Below are positions 9,935 through 28,686 of a stretch of DNA of 32,000 nt, one piece after another. Origin of the DNA: Synechococcus sp. A15-24 (GTDB lineage: Bacteria; Cyanobacteriota; Cyanobacteriia; PCC-6307; Cyanobiaceae); assembly GCF_014280195.1 (NCBI RefSeq), contig NZ_CP047960.1, forward strand, positions 360,001-392,000, given 5' to 3'. The notes under the pieces were generated by a model, which searched no databases, was not told the DNA's origin, and worked only from the letters and a program-made list of their open reading frames with translations. The stretch's first letter is position 1. The number at the start of each line of letters is the position of its first letter. A program made the position numbers and the translations under genes.

Positions 9935-11211
9935 CAACAAGTTCTGCTGTGAAATATCGCGATGATATGGGTGTGCTATCTGATCGATATCGTGCCGATT
10001 TCCCGATCTTTGGCCAGCGTGCGCCGGATGGCCGCCCGCTGATTTACCTCGATCACGCCGCCACCAGTCAGAAGCCGCGCCAGGTGTTGCAGGCCCTGGA
10101 GCATTACTACGCCGCAGACAACGCCAACGTTCATCGCGGTGCTCATCAGCTCAGTGCCCGGGCCACCGAATCCTTTGAAGCAGCCCGCACGGTGACGGCG
10201 GAGTTCGTGCGCGCCGCCAGCCCGCGCGAAATCGTGTTCACCCGTAACGCCAGCGAGGCGATCAATCTCGTGGCCCGCAGCTGGGGTGACGCCAATCTGC
10301 GTGAGGGGGATGAGGTGTTGCTCACGCTGATGGAGCACCACAGCAATCTGGTGCCCTGGCAGTTGCTGGCCCAGCGCACCGGCTGTGTTCTGCGCCATGT
10401 GGGAATCACGGAGACCGGTGAGCTGGATCTCGAAGACTTCCGCAGCAAGCTCAGCGACCGCACCCGCCTGGTGAGCCTGGTGCACATCAGCAATGCCCTG
10501 GGTTGCTGCAATCCCCTGGACCAGGTGATCCCCGCGGCCCACGCCGCTGGAGCCCTGGTGCTGGTGGATGCCTGCCAGAGCCTGGCCCACAAGCCAATTG
10601 ATGTGGCTGGGCTCGATGTTGATTTTCTGGTGGGCTCCTCCCACAAGCTCTGCGGCCCAACGGGAATGGGCTTCCTCTGGGCGCGGGAAGCGTTGCTGGA
10701 GGCGATGCCGCCGTTCCTGGGTGGCGGCGAGATGATTCAGGACGTGTTTCTCGATCACAGCACCTGGGCGGTGCTGCCCCACAAATTCGAGGCCGGCACT
10801 CCAGCCATCGGTGAAGCGGTGGGCATGGGGGCCGCGATTCGCTATCTGCAAGCCATCGGGCTGGAGGCGATTCAGGTCTGGGAAGCGCAGCTCACCCGCC
10901 ACCTGTTCGAACGGCTCCAGGCCATCGAGGGTGTACGGGTTCTGGGGCCCACGCCGGAACAGCAGCCGGATCGCGGTGCGCTTGCCACCTTCCTGGTTGA
11001 CGGCGTCCATGCCAACGACATCGCTGCCTTGATGGATGCCTCAGGGATCTGCATCCGCAGTGGCCACCACTGCTGTCAGCCCCTTCACCGCCATTACGGC
11101 GTGACGGCGTCGGCCCGGGCCAGCCTCAGTTTCATCAGCACCTTTGAAGAAATTGATCGGTTCAGCGAGGAGTTGACGTCCACCATCGGCTTTCTGAGAG
11201 AGCACGGTTGA
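9931..11211 (+). CDS. sufS: cysteine desulfurase SufS
   Basis: 426 aa. Class V aminotransferase motifs: YLDHAATSQKP, SSHKLCGPTGMGFLW (PLP Lys), RSGHHCCQPL (catalytic Cys). ATGA overlap with sufD. Confidence 0.95.
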   Translation: MTTSSAVKYRDDMGVLSDRYRADFPIFGQRAPDGRPLIYLDHAATSQKPRQVLQALEHYYAADNANVHRGAHQLSARATESFEAARTVTAEFVRAASPREIVFTRNASEAINLVARSWGDANLREGDEVLLTLMEHHSNLVPWQLLAQRTGCVLRHVGITETGELDLEDFRSKLSDRTRLVSLVHISNALGCCNPLDQVIPAAHAAGALVLVDACQSLAHKPIDVAGLDVDFLVGSSHKLCGPTGMGFLWAREALLEAMPPFLGGGEMIQDVFLDHSTWAVLPHKFEAGTPAIGEAVGMGAAIRYLQAIGLEAIQVWEAQLTRHLFERLQAIEGVRVLGPTPEQQPDRGALATFLVDGVHANDIAALMDASGICIRSGHHCCQPLHRHYGVTASARASLSFISTFEEIDRFSEELTSTIGFLREHG

Positions 11212-11413
11212 AAGGTGTTCAGTCTCCAGTCGTGCCTTGAATTGAGGCTTTGCTGAAATTTTATTCTGATAGCTGAAAGTCCAGCCTTTGAAGGTTGAAT
11301 ATCGAATAAATGAGGGGTGTCAATCTCTCTCTAAATTTTGATTTTCTGGTTCTCTTAATACATATATCTTTCAGTGTTATCGTGAGCCACTCTGTTTTTG
11401 GGTTGATCGCAGC

Positions 11414-13384
11414 ATGGCCAGCGCTGATTACATTCCATCAGTTTTGCTTGGTCAGGCGGTGACCTCTGAGCCTGGTCGCTCCCGGTATGAGTGGCGTAAT
11501 CAACGCTCTTTTACGGCGATTAAATCCGATGGATCAGTCGTGAGTTGGGGCAGTGTTTCAACCGATGGGAATGAGGACGTTATTCGCTATACGAAAGAAG
11601 GCCCCTTCCAGCAGGTGTTCAGCAACAGGCATGCGTGGGCAGCCATCCGCTCCGACGGGAAGCTGATCACCTGGGGGAATGGCGGTCGTGGTGGCGAGAA
11701 GCGCGACGCAAAAGATGACCTTCAGGATGGAGTCGTCACAGTTTTCTCAACAAGGCGGTCATTCTCCGCACTCAAGTCGGATGGATCAGTCGTGAGTTGG
11801 GGGCAAGATCTGGAAGGAGGGGATAACAGCCTTGTGGCCGAACAATTGACCTCCGATGTTGTGAACCTGTTCTCCACTGGAACGTCGATGGCGGCCTTGA
11901 AGTCGGATGGTTCTGTGGTGACTTGGGGGCTCTCAACAGAAGATCCCAGGTCTGAATCTCTTGGTGGTGATATTGATACTGGTTCGCCCCGTGGCGGCGA
12001 CAGCTCTGAGGTGGCGGACCTGATTGATTCCGATGTTGTTGATGTTTTTTCGAGCCGTTATGCCTTTGCAGCACTGAAAAATGATGGGAGTGTTGTGGCA
12101 TGGGGGGATCCCCTGAGAGGAGGTGATACTGGAGATGCTCAAAGACTTTTAAAAAAAGGGGTTCAATCCGTTGCTTCAACTGGGACATCCTTCGCGGCAC
12201 TGAAGAAGAATGGTCGTGTGGTGACTTGGGGCGATCCCTGGCGGGGTGGGAGTAAGGATGTTGTTGATTTTCATACCTATCATTGGACTCTGATGGAAGA
12301 TGAAAGTGAGCCTTTCATCATTGGTCGTGTCAAGAAAGAACTGCGTTCAGGGGTCACTGAAATCTTCTCAACTCGTTATGCCTATGCGGCTCTCAAGGGC
12401 GATGGCTCACTCGTGACCTGGGGTCTGCAAAAGGCTGGTGGTGATTCATCGGGTGTCCTTGATCTCCTTCAAGTTGGTGTGAAGTCAGTGGCGTCAACGC
12501 GCTATGCCTTTGCGGCTTTGTTGAAGGACGGTTCGATTGTTTCTTGGGGTGATAAGGATGCTCGTGTGATGGACAAGAAGACTAGAAAAGCTCTTGCCAA
12601 TGGTGAGTTTGTCTCCATTGCCTCGAGCCGCTACGGCTTTGCAGCTTTGGCTGATGATGGATCTGTCGTCAGCTGGGGTTCGACGGGATCTGCGGCCAAT
12701 AGCAAATACCCCATTGATACATCTTCCGTGGAAGAAGAGCTGTCTGGTGGTGTTGTTGAAGTCTTTTCGACGGGTTATTCCTTCGCTGCGCTCAAGGATG
12801 ATGGATCTGTTGTGGCTTGGGGTGATGCTGCCAAAGGTGGTGACACCTCTTCAGTGCGAAGACAGCTTGCCTCTGATGTCGTCACGATTGCAAGCCCATT
12901 CACGGACGTTTCAACGTTCAAGTTGATCGGTAATGAAGTTACTTGCATTATTGATTTTGATCTTTCATCTGATGTAGATGCCGCTAATCATCTGATGCTT
13001 GGAGGACTTGCGCGGCTGTCCGGAAAAGGGAATGATCGCGCTAACAGGATTGTGGCTAACAATTCTGGAAATGAATTGTTTGGGCGCAGTGGTGCTGATT
13101 CTTTGATCGGTGGTGAAGGCGACGATGTCCTCCGCGGGGGTGCTGGTGATGATCTGATGAATGGTGGACGAGGTGCCGACCAATTCGAGATGTCGAAGGG
13201 TCAAGATCTGATTGAAGACTTTGAACCATCTGAAGGTGACCAAATCATCGTTGAAAATGAAGATTTGATTTCAATGACTCCAACTGCTGGCGGTTTGATG
13301 TTGACACGCGATGGTGAGGGGCATTCCTTAGTGCTGCAAGGTCTGACTTCCAGTGATGTGTCTGGCTACGACATCTTTGCCTGA
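11414..13384 (+). CDS. secreted-type repeat protein: 10 RCC1-like propeller repeats plus C-terminal RTX calcium-binding repeats
   Basis: 656 aa. Ten copies of the unit ..FSxxxAFAALKxDGSVVxWGxxxxGGD.. (for example AIKSDGSVVSWG, ALKSDGSVVTWG, ALKDDGSVVAWG). These are followed by nonapeptide repeats LIGGEGDDVLRGGAGDDLMNGGRGADQF. No N-terminal signal peptide, as expected for a type I secretion substrate. The gene and both flanks are clearly AT-richer than the surrounding genes. Confidence 0.8.
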   Translation: MASADYIPSVLLGQAVTSEPGRSRYEWRNQRSFTAIKSDGSVVSWGSVSTDGNEDVIRYTKEGPFQQVFSNRHAWAAIRSDGKLITWGNGGRGGEKRDAKDDLQDGVVTVFSTRRSFSALKSDGSVVSWGQDLEGGDNSLVAEQLTSDVVNLFSTGTSMAALKSDGSVVTWGLSTEDPRSESLGGDIDTGSPRGGDSSEVADLIDSDVVDVFSSRYAFAALKNDGSVVAWGDPLRGGDTGDAQRLLKKGVQSVASTGTSFAALKKNGRVVTWGDPWRGGSKDVVDFHTYHWTLMEDESEPFIIGRVKKELRSGVTEIFSTRYAYAALKGDGSLVTWGLQKAGGDSSGVLDLLQVGVKSVASTRYAFAALLKDGSIVSWGDKDARVMDKKTRKALANGEFVSIASSRYGFAALADDGSVVSWGSTGSAANSKYPIDTSSVEEELSGGVVEVFSTGYSFAALKDDGSVVAWGDAAKGGDTSSVRRQLASDVVTIASPFTDVSTFKLIGNEVTCIIDFDLSSDVDAANHLMLGGLARLSGKGNDRANRIVANNSGNELFGRSGADSLIGGEGDDVLRGGAGDDLMNGGRGADQFEMSKGQDLIEDFEPSEGDQIIVENEDLISMTPTAGGLMLTRDGEGHSLVLQGLTSSDVSGYDIFA

Positions 13385-13625
13385 CTTCGCTCGTTGGTGA
13401 GATCGAGATAAGCGCTGAAAAAATGCTCCGTATCTTTAATCACGTCAACTTGTGAGACTTGGTTGCGAAATAAGTGCTCTTTTAGTCTAAAAACTGCCAT
13501 TTGCCGAGAGGATCATGCGTTCCTGATATTCGGGTATGGGTTCGATTGTGTCCACCAGAACAACTTCATCTAAGTTGCTTTTAGGAATCCACTATCAATA
13601 TTTTGCGCAATCTCAGCTGAGGCGT

Positions 13626-13799
13626 TCAGGCAGACAGCTGATTGTTGAACGACGAGTCTTCGTTTTGTTTGAGGGGCACGACGTTGTTGCTTGGGATGGC
13701 GTATTGAACCCAGCGATAGGAGCGCTCGCCTGGACGGGGTGCTTCGGCGACAGGCTCAGGGCTGTTGTAGGTGTTGCCGCGGTAGCGAAGAATGCGCAT
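13626..13799 (-). CDS. small DUF4278-like protein (57 aa, below the ORF-track cutoff)
   Basis: ATG at 13799: MRILRYRGNTYNSPEPVAEAPRPGERSYRWVQYAIPSNNVVPLKQNEDSSFNNQLSA. The M-x-L-x-YRG-x-x-Y start is the DUF4278 hallmark as I recall it. The longer track ORFs here (13536..13886 +, 13613..13834 -) are other frames of the same DNA. Confidence 0.45.
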   Translation of the reverse strand: MRILRYRGNTYNSPEPVAEAPRPGERSYRWVQYAIPSNNVVPLKQNEDSSFNNQLSA

Positions 13800-13973
13800 C
13801 GAGCTCTTGGTTTGAGTGAAAGCATCCCAGGCATGTCTCAGGTCGGGAGTTCAGGTGAGTACATGGTCATCGTTGCTACTGAGTGAACGAGGCAACCATG
13901 AGTTCTGCTGAAGGGCCTTGCTTTTTTAAGTCTCGCGTTAGCGAATATGAGTGGTAGCCCTGCCGGCCGCCTT

Positions 13974-15881
13974 TCATGGCTTGAGGTCGAGGTGGCGCCG
14001 AAAAAAGGATTCCGTCTGTTCCAGAACCTGGATCTGGGTTTCCTGGTTTCGGAATCCGTGCCCTTCGTCGTCGAACAGCCGCACCTCCGCCGGGATCCCA
14101 CTGCTACGCAGGGCATCGGCCATGCGTTGGGTTTGTTCCGGTGGCACCACCTTGTCCTGCAGGCCCTGGAAGAACAGCACAGGGCAGGTGATCTGCTCGG
14201 CGTGAAGCAGGGGTGAGCGTTGCTCATAGCGTTCTCGCTCGGCGGGCCAATCGCCGACCAGGCTGTCCAGGTAACAAGCCTCAAAGCGGTGGGTGTCCTG
14301 GGCCATGGCTGTGAGATCACAGACGGCATAGCGGCAGGCGCCGGCGCGGAACACATCGCTGAAGCAGAGGCCCGCCAAGGTGGTGAAGCCACCGGCGCTG
14401 CCCCCTTCGATGGCGATCTGGTCGGGATGGGCGCGACCGGAGCTGATGAGGGCTTGGGCTGCGGCGGCGCAGTCCGCCACATCCACCACCCCCCAGCCGC
14501 CGTTCAGCCGTTCCCGGTAGGCCCGGCCAAAACCGGTGGATCCGCCGTAGTTCACGTCCACCACGCCCCAACCGTGGCTGGTCCAGTACTGAATCGCCAA
14601 GCTGAGGCCGCGGCGGGCCATCGCTGTCGGGCCGCTGTGGCTTTTCACCAACAGCGGCGCTGGTGTGGGTGGTTGTCCCTGGGGCGGGTAGTACCAGGCG
14701 TGGGTGCGTTGGCCGGCATGACCGGCGAACCAGATCGGTTCCGCCACGCTGATGTCGGCCTGGGCGATCGGCCTCTCCATCGCAGGGGTGTGGACCCAGG
14801 AGCATGGGGCTGTTGGAGACAGGGTCAGTTCCAGCAGCCCGGCCATGGAGCTGCTGTTGCTGGCCACGGCCACGGCGCGACCGTTGAGGGCCCGCAGCCC
14901 GGCCAGGTCGTCGAAGGGTTGATCGATGTAAGTAACCGTGCCGTCCAGGCTCAGGCGTTGGAGCGACCAGCAGCCATCAGCGCAGGTTGCAGCGAGAAGT
15001 TGTTCCCCATCCCAGGCCGTGGTGCTCATGCCGTAGATCCACTGCGGCATCGCGGTTTCTGCCGTCATCGGCCAGGGGGTCTCCCAGGTGGTGCTCCCTG
15101 GTCGCCGTCGCTTCAGGTTCCACCAACCCTCGCTGTCTTCCGCCACCAGCAGCGATCCGTCCTGCAGCCATTGGGGCTGGAACACTGACACCCCTTCACC
15201 GCCAGCAATCGGCCGCGCTTCACTCAGTTCGCCGGATGGGCTGAGATCGGCGCACCACAGTTCACTGCTCTGCCAGGGCATGGCCGGTTGCTGCCATTCC
15301 ACCCAGGCCAGTTGCGTGCCATCCGCACTGAGACAGCCATAGCCGGCGAAGTCCGCCGGCTGATGCCGCAGCTCCGGCTCTTGTTCCGTTGCATCCATGT
15401 CGGCGCTCACCAGTTGATCCACGCCATTGATCTCGCGGATACCAAGCCAGCGGCGGCGCTTCAGATCCAGCAGGCCATCCGCCAGCTGCCAGTCGCCATC
15501 GCGCGTCAGCTTCAAAGGATCCATCAGTGGCTCAGGCCTGTTGTCCCCCAGCAGCGGGAGCCGCCAGTCCTGGCGCCACAGTGCTCCGTCGGCGATCCAC
15601 ACCAGCAGCAACGTTTCGCCATCCATGCCGCTGCACAACACGCCGCCGCCGTAGTCATGCACCCGGCTGCGCAGGCTGATCGGTGAAGGAGTGAGTTCCG
15701 TCGGACTCAGCTCCGCAGCGCCGAAGGGGCGGATCAGGGCCGTGGTGCGCCCTTTTTCCTGAGGTCGCTGTTCCAGCCAGATCAGCCAGATTCGCTGATC
15801 CGGCCCCTCCAGCAGTTGTGGCTCCTTAAGGCCAGGAAGCTTGCCGACGGCGATCGATGCCGGAAGGGGGGTCGGAGCCAT
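13974..15881 (-). CDS. S9 family serine peptidase (prolyl oligopeptidase / acylaminoacyl-peptidase type)
   Basis: N-terminal propeller-like region and C-terminal alpha/beta hydrolase. Nucleophile elbow IAIEGGSAGGFT and acid/His region FQGLQDKVVPP...DDEGHGF. ATG at 15881 is preferred to the track start at 16013, which would overlap the divergent def gene. Confidence 0.85.
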   Translation of the reverse strand: MAPTPLPASIAVGKLPGLKEPQLLEGPDQRIWLIWLEQRPQEKGRTTALIRPFGAAELSPTELTPSPISLRSRVHDYGGGVLCSGMDGETLLLVWIADGALWRQDWRLPLLGDNRPEPLMDPLKLTRDGDWQLADGLLDLKRRRWLGIREINGVDQLVSADMDATEQEPELRHQPADFAGYGCLSADGTQLAWVEWQQPAMPWQSSELWCADLSPSGELSEARPIAGGEGVSVFQPQWLQDGSLLVAEDSEGWWNLKRRRPGSTTWETPWPMTAETAMPQWIYGMSTTAWDGEQLLAATCADGCWSLQRLSLDGTVTYIDQPFDDLAGLRALNGRAVAVASNSSSMAGLLELTLSPTAPCSWVHTPAMERPIAQADISVAEPIWFAGHAGQRTHAWYYPPQGQPPTPAPLLVKSHSGPTAMARRGLSLAIQYWTSHGWGVVDVNYGGSTGFGRAYRERLNGGWGVVDVADCAAAAQALISSGRAHPDQIAIEGGSAGGFTTLAGLCFSDVFRAGACRYAVCDLTAMAQDTHRFEACYLDSLVGDWPAERERYEQRSPLLHAEQITCPVLFFQGLQDKVVPPEQTQRMADALRSSGIPAEVRLFDDEGHGFRNQETQIQVLEQTESFFRRHLDLKP

Positions 15882-15930: not shown

Positions 15931-16536
15931 TTGGCCGGGAGTTTTGCGCAGCTGGCCCGAGCGGCTGAACAGTCGCGGGACACGATGTTGGTTCCGAAGA
16001 CGGCGCTCGACACCCCTCCGCTGGAGATTCACACCCTCGGAGCTGAAGTGTTGCGTCAGTCGGCCCGGCGCATAGGCAAGGTGACCGAGCAGACCCGCGA
16101 GCTAGCTCGGGACATGCTCAGAAGCATGTACACAGCCAAGGGCATTGGACTGGCGGCTCCGCAGGTGGGGATTCATCAGCAGCTGCTGGTGATCGACCTC
16201 GACCTGGAGAACGCCGCGACACCTCCGCTGGTGTTGATCAACCCTGAGATCAGTGCCGCCAGCGCAAGCATCGACACCTATGAGGAGGGTTGTCTCAGCA
16301 TTCCCGGTGTTTACCTCGATGTGGTCAGGCCGACCGCCATTGAGCTCAGCTTCCGTGATGAGATGGGACGGCCGAGAAAGATGAAGGCCAATGGCCTGAT
16401 GGCCCGCTGCATCCAGCACGAGATGGATCATCTCAAGGGTGTGTTGTTTGTGGATCGCGTCACCGATGAAGCCGGTCTTGAGAAGGAATTGAAGGATCAT
16501 GGTTTCCAGAGCCAGCACGTTAAGAGCGTTTCCTGA
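15931..16536 (+). CDS. def: peptide deformylase
   Basis: Motifs GIGLAAPQVG, EGCLSIPG, QHEMDHL. The conserved N-terminus (M)AGSFAQLARAAEQ begins at the in-frame TTG at 15931 (201 aa). GTG at 15925 is an alternative. The track start at 15841 adds a non-conserved extension. Confidence 0.9.
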   Translation: MAGSFAQLARAAEQSRDTMLVPKTALDTPPLEIHTLGAEVLRQSARRIGKVTEQTRELARDMLRSMYTAKGIGLAAPQVGIHQQLLVIDLDLENAATPPLVLINPEISAASASIDTYEEGCLSIPGVYLDVVRPTAIELSFRDEMGRPRKMKANGLMARCIQHEMDHLKGVLFVDRVTDEAGLEKELKDHGFQSQHVKSVS

Positions 16537-16539
16537 TCC

Positions 16540-16737
16540 ATGCCGATGAAGCCCCTGGCCGGACTGTTCCTGGCCCTCGCCTGTGTTTTCGGCATCGCCA
16601 GCACCGGTTGCGTGTTCGAGCTGGCCTACGGCGATCCCGATCTTGGGGTCAGCACCACCAGCTGGATCCTGGCGGTGGCGGCTCCCGCCACCGTGGCAAC
16701 CCTGATTGTTGCGATTCGCCTCAACAAACCGGCCTGA
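16540..16737 (+). CDS. small membrane protein
   Basis: 65 aa with two hydrophobic segments (LAGLFLALACVFGIASTGCVF, WILAVAAPATVATLIVAI). Starts 4 nt after def. Confidence 0.45.
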   Translation: MPMKPLAGLFLALACVFGIASTGCVFELAYGDPDLGVSTTSWILAVAAPATVATLIVAIRLNKPA

Positions 16738-16794
16738 TCGGGGGCGACTGACCGGCTCGGCACTTTTACGATCCGCCCAGCTCCGCTTCCGGCC

Positions 16795-17349
16795 GTGATC
16801 TCTCGCCTTCTGTCCGCTGCCGCCGGTCTTGCCTTCGGCATGGCTGCCGTATCAGCAGCCCAGGCCCAGGGATCGCTGTTCACGGCTGTGCCTGTGGACA
16901 CCAGCAAGTTCATCCTGGTGTCGGCCCCGATAGGCAACGGCGAGCGCTCACAGCTCAATATCTACGAGCAGCGGTCTGAGAAGCGCCCCTGCTTCGCCGT
17001 CAGCGGCAGCTCACCCGCCATCGTCGATCCCTTGTTGTCGACCTTTGATTTCACCGGGATCTGTAACCGCTACATCGACGGCAACGGCTATTCCCTGCGC
17101 ATCGGTGGCGATGACCTCGGCACCCGTTACCGCCTCATGGTGGTGAACACCGGCAGCGACATGGAGCTGCTGGCAGCACCGACAAGGGATCGCAGCCAAC
17201 CCACCTTCCTTATTGCCAGCACCGGTGGTGCCGGCAGTGACTTCCTCAAATTTAACCTGGAGCCCGGCTGGACCCTGATGCGTCGTGCCTACGGCAAGAA
17301 GACCCTTGGCCACATCTACGTGTTCCGAGACAGCGCTCCAGCCCAGTGA
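16795..17349 (+). CDS. secreted conserved cyanobacterial protein (DUF3747-like)
   Basis: 184 aa. Signal peptide MISRLLSAAAGLAFGMAAVSAAQAQ. The body (FILVSAPIGNGERSQLNIYEQRS..RPCF...FDFTGICNRYIDGNGYSLRIGG) matches my memory of DUF3747. Confidence 0.65.
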   Translation: MISRLLSAAAGLAFGMAAVSAAQAQGSLFTAVPVDTSKFILVSAPIGNGERSQLNIYEQRSEKRPCFAVSGSSPAIVDPLLSTFDFTGICNRYIDGNGYSLRIGGDDLGTRYRLMVVNTGSDMELLAAPTRDRSQPTFLIASTGGAGSDFLKFNLEPGWTLMRRAYGKKTLGHIYVFRDSAPAQ

Positions 17350-17508
17350 TGGTTGGCGGCATCAGGTGTTTTCACCCGTTGCCGCATCGCGTCAGCGTTT
17401 CCACACTGAAGCCAGTGATCATGAGGATGCGATGAAAGCGAAGGTTCTCCATTGGTTCCACTGGCTGGGTCAAGCGATGGTCCATGCCCTCGGTTCAGAG
17501 AAGGATCG

Positions 17509-18537
17509 TCACCTGCAGCCACCGTCTTGAGCCGGGCGCATTTTGCTGATCAGGTGCATCAGGAAAAGCAGTGAGCCATCACTGACCCTTGGCAGCCCTG
17601 GACCAAATCGTCCTGCGAAACCCATGGCCTTGTGTTCGGCTTCGATTTCCTTTTTGATCTTTTTCCACTCCACGCCAAACGGTGGGTTGGAGAGCATGTA
17701 GTCGTACTTCTCCTCTGAGAGCTGGTCGTCCGAGAGGGTGTTGCCGAAGCAAATGCTGTTGATGTCCTGCCCCTTGATCAGCATGTCTGCCTTGCAGATG
17801 GCGTAGGACTCGGGGTTGAGTTCCTGGCCAGACAGCACCAGGCGAGCTGAGCTGTTGTGGCTCACCAAGTGCTCCTCAGCCACGCTCAGCATTCCGCCGG
17901 TTCCAGAGGCTGGGTCGTAGAGGCTGCGGACGATGCCGGGCTGGGTGAGTGCCTCGTCGTCTTCGATGAAGATCAGGTTCACCATCAGGCGGATCACCTC
18001 ACGCGGGGTGAAGTGCTCTCCAGCGGTCTCGTTGGAGAGTTCTGCGAACTTGCGGATCAGCTCCTCAAAGACCAGACCCATTTCGGCGTTGCTCACCGTT
18101 TCTGGGTGCAGGTCGATCTGAGAAAACTTCTCGGTTATTAGATACAGCAGGTTGGCTTTCTCGAGCCGGTCCACCTGGAGGTGGAACTCGAAGCTCTCAA
18201 AGATGTCCCGTACCGCAGGGCTGAAGGCTTGGACGTAGGAGCGCAGGTTCTCGCCGATGTTGTCCGCGTCACCCATCAGCCGCTGCATGTCCAGCGCTGA
18301 GCTGTTGCAGAAGAGATGGCCTGCCTTGCGCAGCATGAACGGCTCTGGGTCGAGCCCCTGTCCCTCTCTGAGGGCCTTCTCTTCTAAGACGTCTGCCTTG
18401 GTGGGCTCCAGGACGCAGTCGAGCCTTCTCAGGACGGTGAACGGGAGGATGACCTTGCCGTAGTCGCTCTGCTTGTAGTCGCCGCGTAGTAGGTCAGCAA
18501 CGGACCAGATGAAGGCTGAGAGATTGCTGTCGGCCAC
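17509..18537 (-). pseudogene. hsdM: type I restriction-modification methyltransferase subunit HsdM, 3'-truncated
   Basis: GTG start. HsdM N-terminal domain (FIWSVADLLRGDYKQSDYGKVILPFTVLRRLDCVL), SAM motif I DPASGTGGML, motif IV NPPF. Ends at ...LMHLISKMRPAQDGGCR*, where full-length homologues continue for well over 100 more residues. No hsdS or hsdR follows. Confidence 0.85.
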
Positions 18538-18641
18538 ACGTCAGAACGTCCTCAACAGGATTTTCAGCCAGTCCTGTCAGGAAGTCATCCCTCGTTTGGG
18601 GGATTTGTCGAATCTGGATCGAACTTCTGGTCCATCCGGGC

Positions 18642-18729
18642 AAAAATAAACCCCCGCCAAAGGCAGGGGTTCCAAAACGTCTCTCGAGAGTGTGACCTTG
18701 TTTCCACCTCGTGAGGCGTTTTTCCTCAC
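18642..18729 (-). ncRNA. Yfr2-family-like sRNA, copy 1
   Basis: Minus strand: hairpin GTGAGG-AAAAACG-CCTCAC. Second hairpin GAGGTG[GAAACAAGGT]CAC(A)CTC, presenting GGAAACA in the loop. Then terminator CCCCTGCC-TTT-GGCGGGGG plus TTTATTTTT. The GGAAACA loop motif plus a terminator is the Yfr2-family signature as I recall it. Confidence 0.5.
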
Positions 18730-18748
18730 TCAATCACGATGTCAATTG

Positions 18749-18768
18749 ACTGGCACAGTGACAGTTGG
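18749..18768. repeat. left arm of a perfect 20-bp inverted repeat (ACTGGCACAGTGACAGTTGG)
   Basis: Exact reverse complement of 19772..19791. The core ACTGnCACnGTGnCAGT is itself an imperfect palindrome. Confidence 0.9.
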
Positions 18769-18809
18769 GAGTGGACGCTTTGCCGGCTGTTTGGCTTGCT
18801 AGTGCAGGT

Positions 18810-18884
18810 TCACACTCTTGGAGCGATGTGAGTCACGAGGTCAGCGTTGACCCAGTTGATGACGCCGGTATCGACGTCTAGCCC
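18810..18884 (-). pseudogene. C-terminal relic of a DUF3104 gene
   Basis: Encodes GLDVDTGVINWVNADLVTHIAPRV*. The DVDTGVINWVNAD part matches the copy at 20069..20110 at the amino-acid level with synonymous third-position differences (gac/gat, acc/aca). No upstream DUF3104 body. Confidence 0.55.
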
Positions 18885-19088
18885 CTACGAGTTACCTGCC
18901 TCTAGGGCCATCACTTGATCCATTCTCTTTTCCTCGGCAGTGAGGAAATCGGCCCACATGCCTATTAGGAAGCTCAGAGTCGCTAATGCCCGAACCTGCT
19001 CGTTCGAGCCAGGACGGGTGTATTTGAAGTCCTTGAACATGCGGTCAGCGGCTGATCGCTGTTCTTGGCATCGGGCATCAATAGACAT
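18885..19088 (-). CDS. hypothetical 67-aa protein
   Basis: MSIDARCQEQRSAADRMFKDFKYTRPGSNEQVRALATLSFLIGMWADFLTAEEKRMDQVMALEAGNS. I take the internal ATG at 19088. The 143-aa track ORF extends upstream through two terminator hairpins and runs antisense to a better-biased small ORF. Confidence 0.35.
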   Translation of the reverse strand: MSIDARCQEQRSAADRMFKDFKYTRPGSNEQVRALATLSFLIGMWADFLTAEEKRMDQVMALEAGNS

Positions 19089-19160
19089 TGTCAGGCCTCG
19101 AGTTGCGCCACGGTAGCCATATTTCGTTACATTCCGTAATGAACTTGCTTTCGGGTCTTT

Positions 19161-19262
19161 ATGTCCATCTCCAGTCAAGACCTGATCGTCTTCTTCGCCA
19201 GCTTCGGCGTGGCTCTCGTCGCCCTGAACCTCTACAAGCTGTCTCAGCCTGCAAAGGGCTGA
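19161..19262 (+). CDS. 33-aa hydrophobic peptide (single TM)
   Basis: ATG..TGA: MSISSQDLIVFFASFGVALVALNLYKLSQPAKG. 26 of 32 codons after the ATG end in G/C, matching host codon bias. This is much better than the antisense frame of the 143-aa track ORF. Below the ORF-track size cutoff. Confidence 0.4.
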   Translation: MSISSQDLIVFFASFGVALVALNLYKLSQPAKG

Positions 19263-19296
19263 AAAAAGCGCTCCGGTTGCTCCGGATTTCCGGAGC
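19262..19296 (-). terminator. possible minus-strand terminator with alternative pairings
   Basis: Minus strand: GCTCCGG-AAAT-CCGGAGC-AA-CCGGAGCGC-TTTTTT. GCTCCGG can pair with either CCGGAGC copy, and the distal pairing places a U-tract 2 nt after the stem. Confidence 0.35.
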
Positions 19297-19314
19297 AAAA
19301 TGTGGAAAGCGGCC

Positions 19315-19343
19315 AAAAAGAAACCCCGGAGAGATCTCCGAGG
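19315..19343 (-). terminator. rho-independent terminator (minus strand)
   Basis: Minus strand: CCTCGGAGATCTCTCCGGGG followed by TTTCTTTTT. The tail is like that of the two Yfr2-like terminators. Confidence 0.55.
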
Positions 19344-19536
19344 TCTTTAATCCATTCGGCTGATCCCCATCACCCGGCCGGTCTCGACAAAACTAACCTC
19401 GTTGGACTCATTTGTGCCACAACTGGACGGTTCCACAATTGTGTGGTGAAAATCCGACCCGCGCCTCTTGACACCATATGTGGGGCTAGTCAGCACGAAG
19501 CAGCTGAGTCATATTTAGGTTTCCCCCATCACCCAG

Positions 19537-19566
19537 CCCGTTGTGCGAGTCACACCGGGTTTTTTT
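19537..19566 (+). terminator. rho-independent terminator (plus strand), end of an unassigned short transcript
   Basis: CCCGTTGTG-CGAGT-CACACCGGG (one mismatch) followed by TTTTTTT. No credible CDS upstream on the plus strand. Confidence 0.55.
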
Positions 19567-19657
19567 GTGCCCTGAAGCGCTAGGGATGGTGCTCTGGGCG
19601 GCTGTTGCGACCCGAAGACACAGTTTGGATCCACTGACCTTGTGGATAACTGAGGGC

Positions 19658-19741
19658 AAAAAGAAACCCCCGCCAAAGGCAGGGGCTCCGAAAACTCACG
19701 GGGTTGTGTCCTTGTTTCCAACCCGTGAGGTTTTTCCTCAC
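19658..19741 (-). ncRNA. Yfr2-family-like sRNA, copy 2
   Basis: Minus strand: GTGAGG-AAAAA-CCTCAC, then GGGTTG[GAAACAAGGACA]CAACCC, then CCCCTGCC-TTT-GGCGGGGG plus TTTCTTTTT. Same architecture as copy 1, with two compensatory base-pair changes in hairpin 2. Confidence 0.5.
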
Positions 19742-19771
19742 GTCCAAAACCTAGCCAGATGAATGGCCATG

Positions 19772-19791
19772 CCAACTGTCACTGTGCCAGT
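19772..19791. repeat. right arm of the perfect 20-bp inverted repeat (CCAACTGTCACTGTGCCAGT)
   Basis: Exact reverse complement of 18749..18768. The match does not extend on either side. Confidence 0.9.
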
Positions 19792-19824
19792 TTTGGGTGA
19801 CGCCTTTTGGCTTGTCCTAAGCGA

Positions 19825-19947
19825 TCAAGCATCGACTTCTTTCTTGTCGCCCTGCTTTTCCATCATCTGCTCGGGGGTTGCTTCGGCTGACTTACTGGAG
19901 GAGCATCCGCCAGCGTTAGCCACGTTGGCGAAGGCGGCCAAAACCAT
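19825..19947 (-). CDS. possible 40-aa lipoprotein-like peptide (perhaps the tail of a frameshifted longer ORF)
   Basis: MVLAAFANVANAGGCSSSKSAEATPEQMMEKQGDKKEVDA with a lipobox-like NAGGC. An out-of-frame ATG at 20000 encodes MNRSPNFAFIGGTVIIAT, which would make a fuller signal peptide if a 1-nt frameshift near 19950 were repaired. Confidence 0.3.
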   Translation of the reverse strand: MVLAAFANVANAGGCSSSKSAEATPEQMMEKQGDKKEVDA

Positions 19948-20068
19948 GTCGCGATGATCACGGTGCCGCCAATGAAGGCGAAATTTGGGGACCGGTTCAT
20001 GAGAAGTAGACCTAAGAGTCTGGTGCCCCTATCCACTCAAATCAGACCCTGGGGACGATGTGAGTCAC

Positions 20069-20294
20069 TTAGTCAGCGTTGACCCAGTTGATGACGCCTG
20101 TATCGACATCAGCCCCTTGTAACAACGTTGGAACCCTTGGGTTTCTGGCACCGCCATCGACCCAGATAGATCACATCAGCCATCCGCCAGGCCCCATCCG
20201 TGTCAGTGACGATCACGGTCATGCCTGCTTTGACGCGCAGAAAGAGGGGATCTGACTTGGGCGCTGCAACGGCGCTCGCATGATCAACCGACAT
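20069..20294 (-). pseudogene. DUF3104-family gene with an internal frameshift
   Basis: Track ORF 20109..20294 encodes MSVDHASAVAAPKSDPLFLRVKAGMTVIVTDTDGAWRMADVIYLG and then nonsense. A different frame from about 20160 encodes WVDGGARNPRVPTLLQGADVDTGVINWVNAD*. Joined, they match the DUF3104 pattern as I recall it (..GD.V.V...W..G.VI...GGAR.P.....Q..DVDTGVI..VNAD). Confidence 0.55.
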
Positions 20295-20306
20295 ACCTTT
20301 CTTAAA

Positions 20307-20324
20307 CTAGTACGCATGTACTAG
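20307..20324. other. 7-bp perfect inverted repeat CTAGTAC-GCAT-GTACTAG spanning the recombinase stop codon
   Basis: Lies between the recombinase stop (20321-20323) and the DUF3104 start (20294). Either a hairpin or a dimer-binding site. Confidence 0.4.
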
Positions 20325-21859
20325 CAGTGTGTGGACGTCTTGGGCAAGGGTGGAACCGTTAAAAGCTGCTTAAACGTCTGATCCTTCGCTTTGCCGAAGC
20401 CCCAGCCCTCCACTGAGATGGCCCTGCTCTTGCCGGGTCGACGGATGGCTTCGCTCACGTAGAGGAGCTTGAGCTCGCCACCTGCAGCCTCCGCTCGACA
20501 GAACTGCTTGAGCAGATTACGGAGCAGGGCCGGTTCCTTATCGATCAGGTCGGCTGCCGATTCCTGTTTGAAGCTCTGCACCTGTTGGATGAATGTCTCG
20601 ACAGCGGTGGAGCTCTTGGCCTGGATCGTGCGGGCCAGCTCATCCCGCTTCTTGTCCAACACTTGCCGCAGGTCGGGGTCATCCATCGCCTCGAGTTGCT
20701 GAATCCTGTCCTTCAAGGCGATTTCTCCAGCGCTCAGCTCGTTTTGCTGGGCTGCCAGAACTTCCTGCATGCGGCACACCAGTTCAGCGGCATGCACCTG
20801 AAGCATGGTGAACATGGCAATTGCCGTCTCCCTGGCCCGCATCGTTTTGTACCGGGAAGGGCAACCCACGGCGATGCACCTGAGGCACCAGTAATCAGCA
20901 CCTTTGCCTGGTTGGTGGTGGTGGAGGTTCCGGCCGCAGTCGCCGCATTGCACCAATCCAGTCAGGATCTTGGTGTCATGGCCCAACCCCCGGCGGTCTG
21001 GCTGCTTCCGTGCCTCATAGACGGAGTGGATGAAGGCCAGCTGCTCTCGCTTCAGCAGTGCAGGTTGAAACGGTTTGCCGTCGTCGTCGGTCCAGATGAT
21101 CTCCTCAAAATCACCTGGCGGCCGTGACACCCTGAGCTTCTTGCCGGTCTTTAGATCGACCTCCTTCCTCTGCTGCCCGTAGACCCGAGCACCTGCGAGC
21201 GTCGGGTTTCGGATCCAACGCTGTAGTGAATAGTTGGACCCCCACCTGATCCCATGCTCACGATGAAACCAATCCACCAGGGCGCCGGTGTTGGGGTCCT
21301 TGAGGAACCGCTGGATTGCCTCCTCTGCGATGTGCCAGCTGGTGGGGTCGGGTTCATACCTGCTGCCGTCCTCACTGAAGACGTAGGAAAACAGCGGTTT
21401 TGAACCGAACGGTTTGCGCTGGTCGCGCCGGTGTTTGAAGCCAGCTTTCAGTCGTTCAGCCAGTCGATCGGTCTCAGCCTCTGCCCAGCTGATCAGCATG
21501 CGGGCCATGAACCTCCCACCTGAGGTGCTGAGGTCGAGGCTGTCGTCCAGGGCCACCAGGCTGGGGCTGTTGTCCTGGCTGAAATACCGGAGCAGCTCAG
21601 CGCCATGGCTGCTGCTGCGGCTCAAGCGGTCGAGGCGAGTCACGACGACCGTGTTCATCAAACCTGCACCACAGTCACGGATCAGGCGTGACAGCTCGGG
21701 TCTGTCGTCCTTGGATCCGCTATCGATATCGATGTAACGCAGTGGTTCGTTGCCCCCGTGGGCGGTTGCGGCGGCTTCTAGACGGGCGATCTGCTGCTCG
21801 AGAGCGTTCTCCTGCTCATCGGAGCCGGTGCTGACCCTGGCGTAGATCGCGACCCGCAA
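20321..21859 (-). CDS. large serine recombinase (resolvase domain + recombinase domain + zinc ribbon + coiled coil)
   Basis: 512 aa. N-terminus (M)RVAIYARVSTGSDEQ with the catalytic Ser, then VVVTRLDRLSRS. Central recombinase-domain region. Cys cluster CGDCGRNLHHH...YWCLRCIAVGC. Start codon is TTG (no in-frame ATG/GTG between it and the upstream TGA). Confidence 0.9.
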   Translation of the reverse strand: MRVAIYARVSTGSDEQENALEQQIARLEAAATAHGGNEPLRYIDIDSGSKDDRPELSRLIRDCGAGLMNTVVVTRLDRLSRSSSHGAELLRYFSQDNSPSLVALDDSLDLSTSGGRFMARMLISWAEAETDRLAERLKAGFKHRRDQRKPFGSKPLFSYVFSEDGSRYEPDPTSWHIAEEAIQRFLKDPNTGALVDWFHREHGIRWGSNYSLQRWIRNPTLAGARVYGQQRKEVDLKTGKKLRVSRPPGDFEEIIWTDDDGKPFQPALLKREQLAFIHSVYEARKQPDRRGLGHDTKILTGLVQCGDCGRNLHHHQPGKGADYWCLRCIAVGCPSRYKTMRARETAIAMFTMLQVHAAELVCRMQEVLAAQQNELSAGEIALKDRIQQLEAMDDPDLRQVLDKKRDELARTIQAKSSTAVETFIQQVQSFKQESAADLIDKEPALLRNLLKQFCRAEAAGGELKLLYVSEAIRRPGKSRAISVEGWGFGKAKDQTFKQLLTVPPLPKTSTHC

Positions 21860-21904
21860 CTCTTGAGCGCTACTGAATTGCTCTCAGGCTAATAGGTGTG
21901 GCCT

Positions 21905-22009
21905 CACCACCAGCTGAATCCCCGGCAGTCCGGGCGCCAGGTCGACTTCAACGGTGACGGGATGGGCCTGCAGGCCCTGCAGCGATGCACTGAGACAACG
22001 TGCCAGCAT
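21905..22009 (-). pseudogene. comM: 5' stub of comM/yifB (Mg-chelatase-like competence ATPase), about 35 codons
   Basis: ATG at 22009: MLARCLSASLQGLQAHPVTVEVDLAPGLPGIQLV matches the conserved ComM/YifB N-terminus (MLAR..SA.L.G..A..V.VEVD...GLP....VGLPD). After codon 34-35 it reads VRPHLLA* instead of GLPD... No other ComM motif (Walker A and so on) occurs anywhere in the window. Confidence 0.7.
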
Positions 22010-22082
22010 TCAGGAAGTGGTGTGATGCATGGGGTTGATGCCCCGCCTGTCACATCAGCAGCCCCCTCCTGATCTTTTCGAC

Positions 22083-22424
22083 ATGGCGGACGACACCATC
22101 TTTGGAAAGATCCTCAGGGGGGACATCCCCTGCGATGAGGTTTACAGCGACGATCGCTGCCTGGCCTTTCGCGACATCGCCCCCCAGGCCCCCGTGCATG
22201 TGCTGGTGATACCCAGGCAGCCGATTGAAAGCCTGCGCAGCGCTAGTAGCGGCGATGAAGCGCTGTTGGGGCACCTGCTGCTGGTGGCGGCCCGGGTTGC
22301 GCGGCAGGAGGGTCTGGAGGATTTCCGCACTGTGATCAACAGTGGCGCCGCCGCGGGGCAGACCGTGTTCCACCTGCATGTGCACGTGATCGGTGGCCGA
22401 TCTCTGGATTGGCCGCCCGGTTGA
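22083..22424 (+). CDS. HIT-family (histidine triad) nucleotide-binding protein
   Basis: MADDTIFGKILRGDIPCDEVYSDDRCLAFRDIAPQAPVHVLVIP...FHLHVHVIGG (HxHxHxx motif). ATG at 22083 is preferred to the longer track ORF. Confidence 0.9.
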   Translation: MADDTIFGKILRGDIPCDEVYSDDRCLAFRDIAPQAPVHVLVIPRQPIESLRSASSGDEALLGHLLLVAARVARQEGLEDFRTVINSGAAAGQTVFHLHVHVIGGRSLDWPPG

Positions 22425-22448
22425 GGTCAGCCTCGCCACAATGAACCC

Positions 22449-24434
22449 ATGACGGTTTCTTCCATGGAGTCGCGCCAGGGTTTGCGCGGCCAGCTCAACA
22501 AGCTGCGCAACCTGGCCCAGCCTTTCTTCCTGCCCCTCGATCAGGCCAGCGGCTGGCAATTCGTTGGGTTGCTGGTGGCGCTGTTGTTCTGCGTCGGCGG
22601 GTTAGTGCTGGTGGCTCTCACCGGCCTGATTGGTCTGTTTGAACAGCTCTTGCCGGAGGTCACCGAGAAGTATTTCGGCGGGGTGTCCAGCACGATCGCC
22701 GGCATCTGGAGCAGCGCCTGGGGGGTGGTCTTCAGCGGTTTGTTCCTGATGGGAGGAGCGGCGTTCCTGGCGATGCGCCAACAGCTTCGCAACCGCCGCT
22801 GGCTGCACTGGCTGATGCTCGGCGTGATTGTGCTGATGTTGCTGACGGTCAATGGCATCAATGCCGGCATCGGCTTCATCGCGCGAGACCTCACCAATGC
22901 CCTGGTCGCCAAACAGGCAGATGGCTTCTACCGGATCCTGATCATTTACGCCTGCTGCTTTGTGGTGGCGTTGCCGATCCGTGTATCTCAGATCTTTTTC
23001 ACATTGAAGCTGGGGATTATCTGGCGCGATTGGTTGTCCCGCAGCCTGATCGGGGACTACATGCGCAACCGCGCCTATTACGTCCTCAATCCCAACGATG
23101 AACAGGCGACGGATGTTGATAATCCAGACCAGCGCATCACCGATGACACCCGCTCTTTCACGTCTCAGAGTCTCCAATTCACCCTTGGAGTGTTCGATGC
23201 TCTGCTAACCTTTTCCCTCAACATTCTTATTCTCTGGAGCATCAGTACAACATTGACGCTGTCACTCTTCGGCTACGCAAGTTTTGCGACCGCAGTGCTG
23301 GTGATCTCTGGGCGCAAGCTGGTGAAAATCAACTTTGATCAGCTGCGCTACGAGGCTGATTTTCGCTACGGATTGGTTCATATCCGCAACAACGCCGAGT
23401 CCATTGCCTTTTATTCCGGTGAAGAGCCTGAGGCTGCTGAAACTGAGCGGCGTCTCGGCTCTGTTGTTCGTAATTTCAACCTTCTGATTATCTGGCGCGT
23501 CATCATCGATGTGATGCGTCGCTCGATCGGATATGCCGGAAACTTCTTTCCTTATCTGGTCATGGCTGTTCCCTACTTTGCAGGGGAGATTGATTACGGG
23601 GGCTTCATTCAAGCCAACTTCGCCTTCGGAATGGTGGAGGGATCGCTGTTCTACGTAGTGAATCAGATCGAGGAATTGGCGCAATTCACGGCTGGAATTT
23701 CTCGCCTTGAGGGATTCCAGAGTGAGGTGGAGCAGGTGAGCCGTGAAGCCAGGGGTGCTGACCCTGTGCAGCAGGGAGCTGAGTCGATCGTGGTGCGCCA
23801 TGCCGATCTAACGCCACCCGGTGCTGATCAGCCAATCGTGCGGGATCTCAGTCTCAGCGTCGGCGAAACCGACAAGTTGCTGGTGGTGGGTCCCTCCGGC
23901 TGCGGCAAGACCTCATTGCTGCGGATGATCAGTGGTCTTTGGTCCCCCAGTAAGGGGGACGTTGAACGTCCACCCACAGGCGAGCTCCTGTTCATCCCCC
24001 AGAAGCCCTACATGCTGTTGGGGTCGTTGCGGGAACAGCTCTGTTACCCCACCGATGAAGGCCGGTTCAGTGACGACCAACTTCGCCATGTGCTGGATGA
24101 GGTGAATCTCAGCACGCTCTCGACCCGCTACCCCGACCTGGACGTCAAGCAGGACTGGCCTCGCATCCTTTCTCTTGGTGAGCAGCAACGCCTGGCCTTT
24201 GGCCGATTGCTGCTGAATGCCCCCCGGTTCGTGGTGCTGGATGAAGCCACCAGCGCCCTGGATGTGGCCACTGAGGATCATCTCTACGCCTTGCTGCGTC
24301 AGCGGGAACTGGCGGTGATCAGCATTGGCCACCGTCCCACCCTCAAGCAGTTCCACGATTCAGTGCTCGAGCTCAGCGGCAACGGTGACTGGCGGCTGAT
24401 GTCGGCGACCAGCTATGACTTCGGGCGTTCCTGA
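22449..24434 (+). CDS. fused permease/ATPase ABC transporter (SbmA/BacA-like membrane domain, YddA/COG4178 type)
   Basis: 661 aa. N-terminal multi-TM domain. Walker A GPSGCGKTSLL, signature LSLGEQQRLAFGRLLL, Walker B FVVLDEATSALD. Confidence 0.9.
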   Translation: MTVSSMESRQGLRGQLNKLRNLAQPFFLPLDQASGWQFVGLLVALLFCVGGLVLVALTGLIGLFEQLLPEVTEKYFGGVSSTIAGIWSSAWGVVFSGLFLMGGAAFLAMRQQLRNRRWLHWLMLGVIVLMLLTVNGINAGIGFIARDLTNALVAKQADGFYRILIIYACCFVVALPIRVSQIFFTLKLGIIWRDWLSRSLIGDYMRNRAYYVLNPNDEQATDVDNPDQRITDDTRSFTSQSLQFTLGVFDALLTFSLNILILWSISTTLTLSLFGYASFATAVLVISGRKLVKINFDQLRYEADFRYGLVHIRNNAESIAFYSGEEPEAAETERRLGSVVRNFNLLIIWRVIIDVMRRSIGYAGNFFPYLVMAVPYFAGEIDYGGFIQANFAFGMVEGSLFYVVNQIEELAQFTAGISRLEGFQSEVEQVSREARGADPVQQGAESIVVRHADLTPPGADQPIVRDLSLSVGETDKLLVVGPSGCGKTSLLRMISGLWSPSKGDVERPPTGELLFIPQKPYMLLGSLREQLCYPTDEGRFSDDQLRHVLDEVNLSTLSTRYPDLDVKQDWPRILSLGEQQRLAFGRLLLNAPRFVVLDEATSALDVATEDHLYALLRQRELAVISIGHRPTLKQFHDSVLELSGNGDWRLMSATSYDFGRS

Positions 24435-28676: not shown

Positions 28677-28686
28677 CTCCATTCCC

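Follow-up and report, generated by a model that had tools for sequence, protein, structure and literature searches.

Why should a Synechococcus chromosome carry an open reading frame (ORF) of 41 codons which begins as a ComM protein and runs out in foreign DNA, directly beside a recombinase gene? This is the question raised by Synechococcus sp. A15-24, of which we analysed a 32-kb window (positions 360,001 to 392,000 of contig NZ_CP047960.1, assembly GCF_014280195.1; all coordinates below are counted within this stretch). A sequence-only reading of the same DNA had proposed that comM was interrupted there by an island encoding a serine recombinase, and that a subsequent deletion removed the far junction together with the rest of the gene. 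Our comparisons with related genomes lead to the same view. With a probability of roughly 0.85, an element carrying a large serine recombinase (LSR) gene would have integrated into comM and would later have been truncated by a microhomology-mediated deletion, a proposal which draws on a hybrid att site at the right boundary, microhomology at the left one, and an intact island of the same kind in another strain.

The short ORF (22009..21884, minus strand) encodes MLARCLSASLQGLQAHPVTVEVDLAPGLPGIQLV followed by VRPHLLA and a stop codon, and the whole 41-aa reading is MLARCLSASLQGLQAHPVTVEVDLAPGLPGIQLVVRPHLLA. Comparison with its relatives identifies it as the true 5′ end of comM/yifB, and the locus as a comM locus. 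Around relatives of the adjacent HIT gene, tblastn found ComM/YifB N-termini at 31 picocyanobacterial loci, all divergent from HIT and aligning without a gap to residues 1-34 of the stub (62-91% identity). Full-length comM genes (509-566 aa) stand at 28 of these loci, two run off the end of their contig and one (L002) is itself decayed; relatives without the island therefore have the whole gene at this position and not the same short ORF. A family hidden Markov model (HMM) made from the 28 full-length orthologues was searched against 712 six-frame segments of the window, and it matched the stub over HMM positions 1-35 (E=4.6e-16, 53.9 bits). For comparison, the intact orthologue of L004 matches TIGR00368 (YifB family Mg-chelatase-like AAA ATPase) at 503.7 bits. 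These matches, together with the conserved surroundings, confirm the earlier placing of a ComM N-terminus at the minus-strand ATG at 22009.

The absence of any further comM from the window, which had also been claimed, was borne out, since neither the family HMM nor tblastn matched ComM beyond HMM position 35 anywhere in the 32 kb. Of the features expected of a ComM protein, the N-terminal ChlI-type sequence at the conserved locus was found, and the AAA+ core and C-terminal domain were not found within the window. Two weak ComM matches were noted, one to the P-loop of an ABC transporter (E=4e-4) and one of 9 aa at the C-terminus of SMC; the latter (31778-31804) was considered as a second att site and rejected as a chance match.

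The gene order S9 peptidase, def, 65-aa ORF, DUF3747 gene, comM, HIT gene, ABC gene (DUF3747 and comM convergent, HIT and ABC reading away from comM) is kept in approximately 30 relatives, and the HIT gene adjoins comM in approximately 40 related loci. In comparison with L002, the single-cell genome of Synechococcus sp. AG-670-A05 and the closest available relative, native homology (approximately 85% nucleotide identity) covers 16500-17524 and 21907-22500. Both breakpoints, which the sequence-only reading had wished to see located by such an alignment, can thus be placed at 17524 and 21907. The 4.4 kb between the two native blocks has no counterpart in any related comM locus compared. The comM gene of L002 (8840-9978) is broken too, by frameshifts and an internal deletion of residues ~138-272, though this locus lacks the island; the damage reflects either independent decay in that lineage or errors of single-cell assembly.

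The right boundary of the 4.4-kb segment was resolved with the aid of contig L090 (OZSS01004824.1), which encodes a recombinase 94% identical to that of the window and matches window DNA over 20331-21919. The DNA upstream of its recombinase gene belongs to the element, with a helix-turn-helix ORF as well as a remnant resembling a tyrosine recombinase, and contains no comM, i.e. L090 represents the attP state. In an alignment of the L090 attP, the window junction and the attB sites of L004, L006 and L002, the window follows comM to the left of the 13-nt core ATTCAGCTGGTGG and the L090 attP to the right of it (TGAGGCCACACCTATTAGCC...). The element half of the junction is identical to attP and the comM half corresponds to attB, which identifies it, at the level of sequence, as a genuine attB/attP hybrid (attR), as had been supposed. 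No P arm, attL or second core site was found in the window, where the core had only chance matches with one mismatch.

The structure of the att sites can be described in some detail. The attP of the L090 type reads GGTACCTTTTCACC-TCCATTCAGCTGGT-GGTGAGGCCACACC, and three attP sites (those of L090, of the circular contig L082, and of Synechococcus sp. BIOS-E4-1, the last rebuilt from its attL and attR) all have 14-nt inverted arms of the type GGTnnnnnnTCACC / GGTGAnnnnnCACC, separated by a 14-nt spacer. Arms related to GGTGAGGCCACACC are GGTGAGCTGACACC in BIOS-E4-1, TGTGAGGTGTCACC in L082 and GGAGAGGCGACACC in L086, and each attP has an inverted copy 14 nt away. The central dinucleotide of the spacer is CA in all three attP sites and corresponds to comM codon Q32; the attL and attR of BIOS-E4-1 have only CAG in common. 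Serine integrases cut at the central dinucleotide. Because of this mode of cutting, the symmetry of the spacer and the CAG shared by the two BIOS-E4-1 junctions, strand exchange most likely took place at the CA of codon Q32 (21916-21915). The divergence from comM previously noted at about 21905 is therefore correct as the point at which the sequences visibly part (21906, the end of the common core); the exchange itself probably occurred some 10 nt earlier.

The same arrangement of HIT gene, comM stub and recombinase gene is present, at 97% identity, in the environmental contig L096 (ERZ802822 NODE-3655), which matches window positions 21597-24371 (HIT, the comM stub and LSR codons 1-88). Beyond LSR codon 88, L096 continues into alr, nnr, glmS and glmM, a cluster of actinobacterial appearance. 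We considered L096 (2776-7801) as a second deletion variant, but treated the contig as probably chimeric and used it as a witness of the right junction only.

The recombinase gene begins 47 nt past the divergence point (45 nt in the sequence-only reading, which had correctly recognized a large serine recombinase just inside the junction) and reads into the element. Its Resolvase domain (PF00239, E=3.2e-29) spans residues 3-147, with Y6, A7, R8, V9 and S10 invariant across 18 homologues. The matches to PF13408 (Zn_ribbon_recom; 24.5 bits, the cut-off being 25.3) and PF07508 (E=0.022) are both below threshold, and close homologues carry both domains in precomputed annotation. A full LSR architecture is supported by the best NCBIfam model, XisF (NF041201), which is matched with a score of 233.7 bits (model positions 4-431 of 465). 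As this score is lower than the equivalog cut-off of 375, the protein was not assigned to XisF and is regarded as a relative of that recombinase. Relative to the L090 copy, dN/dS is 0.157, which indicates evolution under purifying selection, although most of the divergence may predate the deletion. The att sites expected of such an enzyme were recovered by comparison: the window attR is made up of a comM half and a P′ half, and both attL and attR are present in BIOS-E4-1. We infer that the protein is a putative integrase performing attP x attB recombination at comM. An identical recombinase (100%) was found in Synechococcus sp. A15-24 only, on one contig.

Elements of the same kind at comM had been predicted to exist in other genomes, and they were found. 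In BIOS-E4-1 a recombinase 56% identical to that of A15-24 adjoins a comM 5′ stub beside HIT, and in contigs L086-L089 a 59%-identical recombinase adjoins a comM stub at the same site. The island of BIOS-E4-1, which yields both attL and attR, is intact and measures 17,975 bp between its two CA dinucleotides. Its far end encodes a 194-aa tyrosine recombinase, a 1289-aa protein, a DUF6011 protein and small ribbon-helix-helix/Arc-like ORFs, after which comes attL. Beyond attL lie the 483-codon 3′ part of comM (ChlI, Mg_chelatase and Mg_chelatase_C), i.e. the approximately 1.4 kb that had been expected on the far side of a complete insertion, and then a 47-aa ORF, rpsU, DUF3747, a 65-aa ORF and def.

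A further relative, L082/L083 (Logan SRR29965097 and SRR29965104), is a 15.76-kb circular element, as judged from a 30-nt terminal overlap and from 100%-identical circular permutations in several runs, and it is a candidate for the excised or replicating form of this element family. It encodes a 58%-identical serine recombinase, a 186-aa tyrosine recombinase, a TerL-like protein, a 1265-aa orphan protein and DUF6011, and its attP is built like the others and resembles the comM site. The intact relatives thus combine a serine recombinase, a tyrosine recombinase of approximately 195 aa, a terminase-like protein, a very large orphan protein, and ribbon-helix-helix regulators beside attP. The large-terminase-like protein of L082 and BIOS-E4-1 matches phrog_2 (E=1e-21). 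In every element compared, the recombinase gene starts within approximately 50 nt of the att site. As far as can be judged from sequence, these elements constitute a family of 16-18 kb in marine Synechococcus, which targets codon 32 of comM and whose att sites can be defined. No description of comM-targeting serine-recombinase elements in picocyanobacteria was found in the searchable literature, and IMG/VR holds no close relative of the recombinase (the best is 41% identical).

More distant recombinases were also encountered. Four Logan/ENA contigs of 17-43 kb (L170-L173) encode 475-aa serine recombinases, approximately 38% identical, which are integrases of phage genomes of about 42 kb with genes for a terminase, a portal protein, a lysozyme, a sigma-70 factor and a Sak-type annealing protein; a tyrosine integrase is also present in two of the four loci. 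There is no comM sequence near these 475-aa relatives, and they were dropped as evidence on comM targeting. In L255 15988-18148 and L254 (Synechococcus CP154799.1) we observed two further integrated elements with the same ~194-aa tyrosine recombinase and a Prim-Pol or D5-type primase. One of them ends in a different serine recombinase (618 aa) beside a short UPF0102 (yraN-like) ORF, possibly a further target among protein-coding genes. No match to the Prim-Pol or D5-type primase was found in the comM-targeting relatives searched.

The left boundary is of a different nature. The type I restriction-modification (R-M) gene hsdM, with which the island ends, had been described as truncated at its 3′ end, and this is the case: residues 1 to ~337 of 580 remain, HsdM_N is complete, and N6_Mtase breaks off at position 175 of its profile (match over positions 5-175 of 311). 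The fragment is 98-99% identical in amino acid sequence to 580-aa proteins, and its DNA is 91% identical to L257 and L258 down to 17513-17516. Full-length HsdM continues as ...AQDGGCRFGIVLNGSPLF, where the window reads ...AQDGGCR and then a stop. Neither hsdS nor hsdR was found in the window. Close hsdM homologues in other Synechococcus stand in complete hsdM-hsdS-hsdR operons (hsdR, 1038 aa), which agrees with the supposed loss of the rest of the operon.

The approximately 160 nt beyond hsdM, which the sequence-only reading was unable to assign, proved to be native. The 175 nt that follow DUF3747 (17350-17524) are common to the window and L002, and they hold a conserved small ORF (MKAKVLHWFHWLGQAMVHALGSEKDRHLQPP...) which has been cut by the deletion. 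By tblastn this ORF was found in L002, L006, L003 and more than 10 other loci, where it lies between DUF3747 and the 3′ end of comM and is convergent with the stop of comM. It is annotated as a 47-aa gene in BIOS-E4-1, and its differences from the L002 copy are largely synonymous. In the alignment of the window with L002, L257 and L258, native homology ends at 17524 and hsdM homology at 17513-17516, the overlap being CTGCAGCCACCG. Judged from this alignment, what stands at the left boundary is no att site but the scar of a deletion at a microhomology of 12 nt. As to the small ORF itself, copies were located at L002 8679-8825, L006 2550-2696 and L256 18542-18685. They belong to no Pfam family, and the consensus of the ~47-49 codons is ...W(L/F)G..(L/M)xHA(F/L)GNPxEE..HQPPxVGxQPYRD.P.

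The history of the locus may be reconstructed from the two boundaries as follows. An LSR-carrying element would have integrated site-specifically (attP x attB) in comM of an ancestor of A15-24, so that the gene was split into a 32-codon 5′ stub beside the recombinase gene and a 3′ part of about 480 codons past the far end of the element. Later, a single illegitimate recombination event at CTGCAGCCACCG would have joined the interior of hsdM to the small ORF downstream of comM. The deletion would have taken away the final ~243 codons of hsdM and presumably also hsdS and hsdR, what was left of the element with attL included (its backbone was probably like that of the relatives), the entire 3′ part of comM and the final ~18 codons of the small ORF. 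By comparison with the relatives of 15.8-18 kb, approximately 10-15 kb may have been lost. What remains (17525-21915, about 4.4 kb) comprises the intact LSR gene, a DUF3104 pseudogene and a DUF3104 fragment, two Yfr2 genes, an orphan ORF and the hsdM stump (Table 1). We infer the order of these events, the single-step nature of the deletion and the content of the deleted segment from the same comparisons. Because attL is gone, the recombinase has no partner site and the remnant should be unable to excise; from the absence of attL within the window it would therefore be immobile. The comM gene at this locus is irreversibly inactivated.

Table 1. Features of the comM locus of Synechococcus sp. 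A15-24 and of the element remnant (positions within the 32-kb window; functional assignments are predictions from sequence comparison).
Feature	Position	Strand	Remarks
DUF3747 gene	16795..17349	+	native left flank; PF12565 E=2e-62; conserved synteny
Native conserved small ORF, truncated after codon 31	17432..17527	+	~49 codons in relatives; native part to 17524
Putative deletion junction, 12-nt microhomology CTGCAGCCACCG	17513..17524		common to hsdM and native small ORF
hsdM fragment, type I R-M	17513..18537	-	residues 1 to ~337 of 580; ORF 18537..17509
CGRE1-like element, Yfr2-family sRNA copy A and terminator	18638..18768	-	RF01701 55.9 bits; sRNA 18671-18735; repeats D1, D4, I1
Second DUF3104 fragment, 3′ end only	18810..18878	-	repeat D2, 86% direct repeat of 20042-20110; translates to LDVDTGVINWVNADLVTHIAPRV and stop
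Orphan ORF, up to 143 aa, coding status uncertain	18885..19316	-	no detectable relatives
Yfr2-family sRNA gene copy B (Rfam Cyano-1) and terminator hairpin	19654..19747	-	RF01701 45.6 bits vs gathering 41; model match 19747-19687; terminator repeat D1
CGRE1-like palindromic promoter element upstream of yfr2 copy B	19772..19791		assigned by resemblance only
DUF3104 pseudogene, one frameshift and in-frame stop	20042..20294	-	frame-corrected: PF11302 E=1e-19, 70 bits
Large serine recombinase gene, 512 aa, TTG start, intact	20321..21859	-	PF00239 E=3e-29
P′ half-site arm GGTGAGGCCACACC of hybrid att site	21895..21908	-	identical in L090 attP
13-nt core ATTCAGCTGGTGG	21907..21919	-	common to comM attB and element attP; likely central CA 21916-21915
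comM/yifB 5′ stub	21914..22009	-	codons 1-32, to the likely crossover; open frame continues in element DNA, stop at 21884
HIT-family gene	22029..22424	+	native right flank, divergent from comM; Pfam HIT E=2e-27

Several observations weigh against the proposed integration and deletion. An exact look-up of the truncated HsdM product found it in no other assembly, and the left junction has no independent witness. The crossover at CA is derived from symmetry and from the CAG of BIOS-E4-1, and the cognate attP was taken from an element with a 94%-identical recombinase (L090), not from the A15-24 element itself. The search for comM covered the 32-kb window, and a relocated 3′ part or a second copy may lie elsewhere in the genome. 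The cargo between the LSR gene and hsdM is without counterpart in related elements and may have accreted separately. Finally, Pfam gave no match in the 41-aa stub; because a query of this length is too short for such a test, we discounted this result and used the family HMM instead.

The question of the cargo leads to the alternative which survives best, namely that the island is composite, with only the LSR gene and the att half-site derived from a comM-targeting element, the DUF3104/Yfr2 genes and the R-M genes being separate acquisitions, and more than one deletion having occurred. Beyond the LSR gene the cargo is indeed unlike that of L090, L081/L256, L082 and L086, and the duplicated DUF3104 3′ fragments and the two yfr2 copies suggest repeated events. 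Moreover, hsdMSR cassettes are found in unrelated Synechococcus contexts and in tycheposon-like insertions at tRNA-Phe (PMC8995045). On the other hand, the variable cargo of BIOS-E4-1 also lies directly downstream of the LSR gene, a position which fits ordinary cargo, and a composite origin is compatible with integration followed by deletion, to which it merely adds steps. We regard it as possible, if rather doubtful.

A rearrangement (inversion or translocation), which carried attL, the element's distal part and the comM 3′ part to another place in the chromosome without loss, would leave comM reconstitutable in principle. Nothing speaks positively for such an event, for which the 32-kb span of the comM search leaves room. 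The joining of hsdM to the small ORF in native order and orientation is exactly what a collinear deletion predicts, whereas a rearrangement needs a second novel junction, and none was found in the window; we therefore consider it highly improbable. Slightly more improbable still is an assembly artefact, i.e. a false join between hsdM and the small ORF (17513-17524) in a genome whose real locus has the full element and the comM 3′ part. The lack of an independent contig with the left junction and the position of the join on a short common sequence would favour this explanation, but a 12-nt match is far shorter than the k-mer sizes used by assemblers, the record is a single 2.3-Mb contig, and the right junction is independently present in L096. 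Microhomology of 12 nt is, furthermore, typical of real deletions arising by illegitimate recombination. That comM was replaced by homologous or illegitimate recombination, with the LSR gene as an incidental passenger, is hardly credible, since, even if the left boundary lacks an att site, the right one falls, to the very nucleotide, on the attP core and P′ arm of the element with the 94%-identical recombinase, lies at the same position as in the independent elements of BIOS-E4-1 and L086-L089, and has the LSR gene close by in every case.

The cargo retained between the recombinase gene and hsdM is of interest in itself. The second DUF3104 fragment represents the last 23 codons and is part of a 69-nt direct repeat. 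Each DUF3104 copy lies upstream of one yfr2 copy, which suggests that a DUF3104-yfr2 module was duplicated or serially inserted. Both yfr2 copies contain the motif GGAAACA followed by a terminator hairpin, and both exceed the RF01701 threshold of 41 (with 55.9 and 45.6 bits). Cyano-1 corresponds to the Yfr2 family (PMC8400943). On this evidence of sequence, a regulatory small RNA (sRNA) family is carried here as mobile-element cargo, predicted Yfr2 genes lying inside the island. The segments 18749-18768 and 19772-19791 form an exact 20-nt inverted repeat (ACTGGCACAGTGACAGTTGG), which we considered as a recombination site; this was rejected, as the repeat better fits a CGRE1-type promoter element upstream of both yfr2 copies. 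CGRE1 is the palindromic operator of the GntR regulator PMM1637/PlmA (PMC6191309). The orphan ORF has no match in Pfam, NCBIfam or PHROG. Antisense to it, a hydrophobic ORF of 33 codons (19161-19262, plus strand; MSISSQDLIVFFASFGVALVALNLYKLSQPAKG), followed by a hairpin, could encode a small membrane peptide or be a type I toxin-like gene. Outside the remnant, the region 11000-14000 of the window has a GC content of 0.48-0.55, against ~0.62-0.65 in its flanks, and contains a gene for a 656-aa protein (11414-13384, plus strand) with RCC1 and RTX calcium-binding repeats; it is probably a separate, horizontally acquired islet.

Serine-integrase elements which split genes are known from Listeria phage A118/phi10403S (comK), Bacillus SPbeta (spsM), skin (sigK) and the fdxN element of Anabaena, which is excised by XisF. 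In these systems, as predicted for A15-24, an LSR inserts an element inside a protein-coding gene, which in the case of comK is a competence gene, and the recombinase gene lies beside short att sites with imperfect inverted arms and a central dinucleotide. The prophages and excision elements that split comK, sigK and fdxN may accordingly be seen as the nearest mechanistic analogue. The A15-24 element differs from them in its target (comM) and its host (a marine picocyanobacterium), and, with attL and the 3′ part of the gene gone, it would no longer constitute a reversible switch.

With respect to the target gene, insertions of mobile elements in comM are known from Acinetobacter and Pasteurellaceae; loss of comM there lowers transformation by heterologous DNA, an effect proposed to shield the element from curing (PMC11472951). 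The AbaR/AbGRI islands and other elements of Acinetobacter baumannii and the insertions in Aggregatibacter and Pasteurellaceae hit the same gene and often carry defence cargo. These insertions, however, arise by Tn7-like transposition into the Mg-chelatase domain, whereas in A15-24 a serine recombinase is placed at codon 32, upstream of the AAA+ core. To our knowledge, natural transformation has not been demonstrated for marine Synechococcus.

With tycheposons (bioRxiv 10.1101/2020.12.28.424599; PMC8995045) the element has in common a picocyanobacterial host, an integrase that faces inwards from one end, variable cargo, and decay to remnants. In 27 of 937 Prochlorococcus elements the place of the tyrosine recombinase is taken by a large serine recombinase (bioRxiv 10.1101/2020.12.28.424599), and tycheposon-like insertions of Synechococcus are known to carry hsdMSR (PMC8995045). 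Tycheposons, however, target tRNA genes, whereas the A15-24 element targets comM and has no replication module in the window. The lineage-specific tyrosine recombinase is absent from the window as well, although the relatives possess a tyrosine recombinase of ~195 aa besides the LSR, and none of the replication and mobility genes which are hallmarks of tycheposons was found there. We therefore rejected the designation of tycheposon in the strict sense, the only tRNA gene of the window (tRNA-Leu, 28595-28677) being 6.6 kb away. A likeness to VEIMEs (Eppley et al. 2022, PMC9618062) and PICI-like satellites may be seen in the occurrence of L082/L083 as a circular contig and in the TerL-like protein of L082 and BIOS-E4-1. 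Nothing of this kind is present in the window, which lacks the backbone genes of the relatives, and no sign of a capsid, of packaging or of a helper phage was obtained; the family belongs among the integrative, possibly satellite-like elements of marine bacteria.

To conclude, an orphan ORF of 41 codons, a truncated hsdM and a lone recombinase gene can be understood as the scar of one integration and one deletion. The remnant as such is an ordinary decayed mobile element; the comM-targeting family in marine Synechococcus to which it points is previously undescribed. In organisms which are difficult to engineer, the attP/attB pairs defined here could be used as integration tools. That comM is the target has its parallel in the conflict between mobile elements and natural transformation in Acinetobacter and Listeria, and it bears on the question of transformation of picocyanobacteria in nature. 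It may be speculated, although we consider this unlikely, that the elements target comM in order to block transformation-mediated curing, or that they act as reversible XisF-like switches which restore comM upon excision. If so, natural transformation would be both real and contested in marine picocyanobacteria, and Synechococcus sp. A15-24 would represent a lineage in which the switch has been locked off by deletion.

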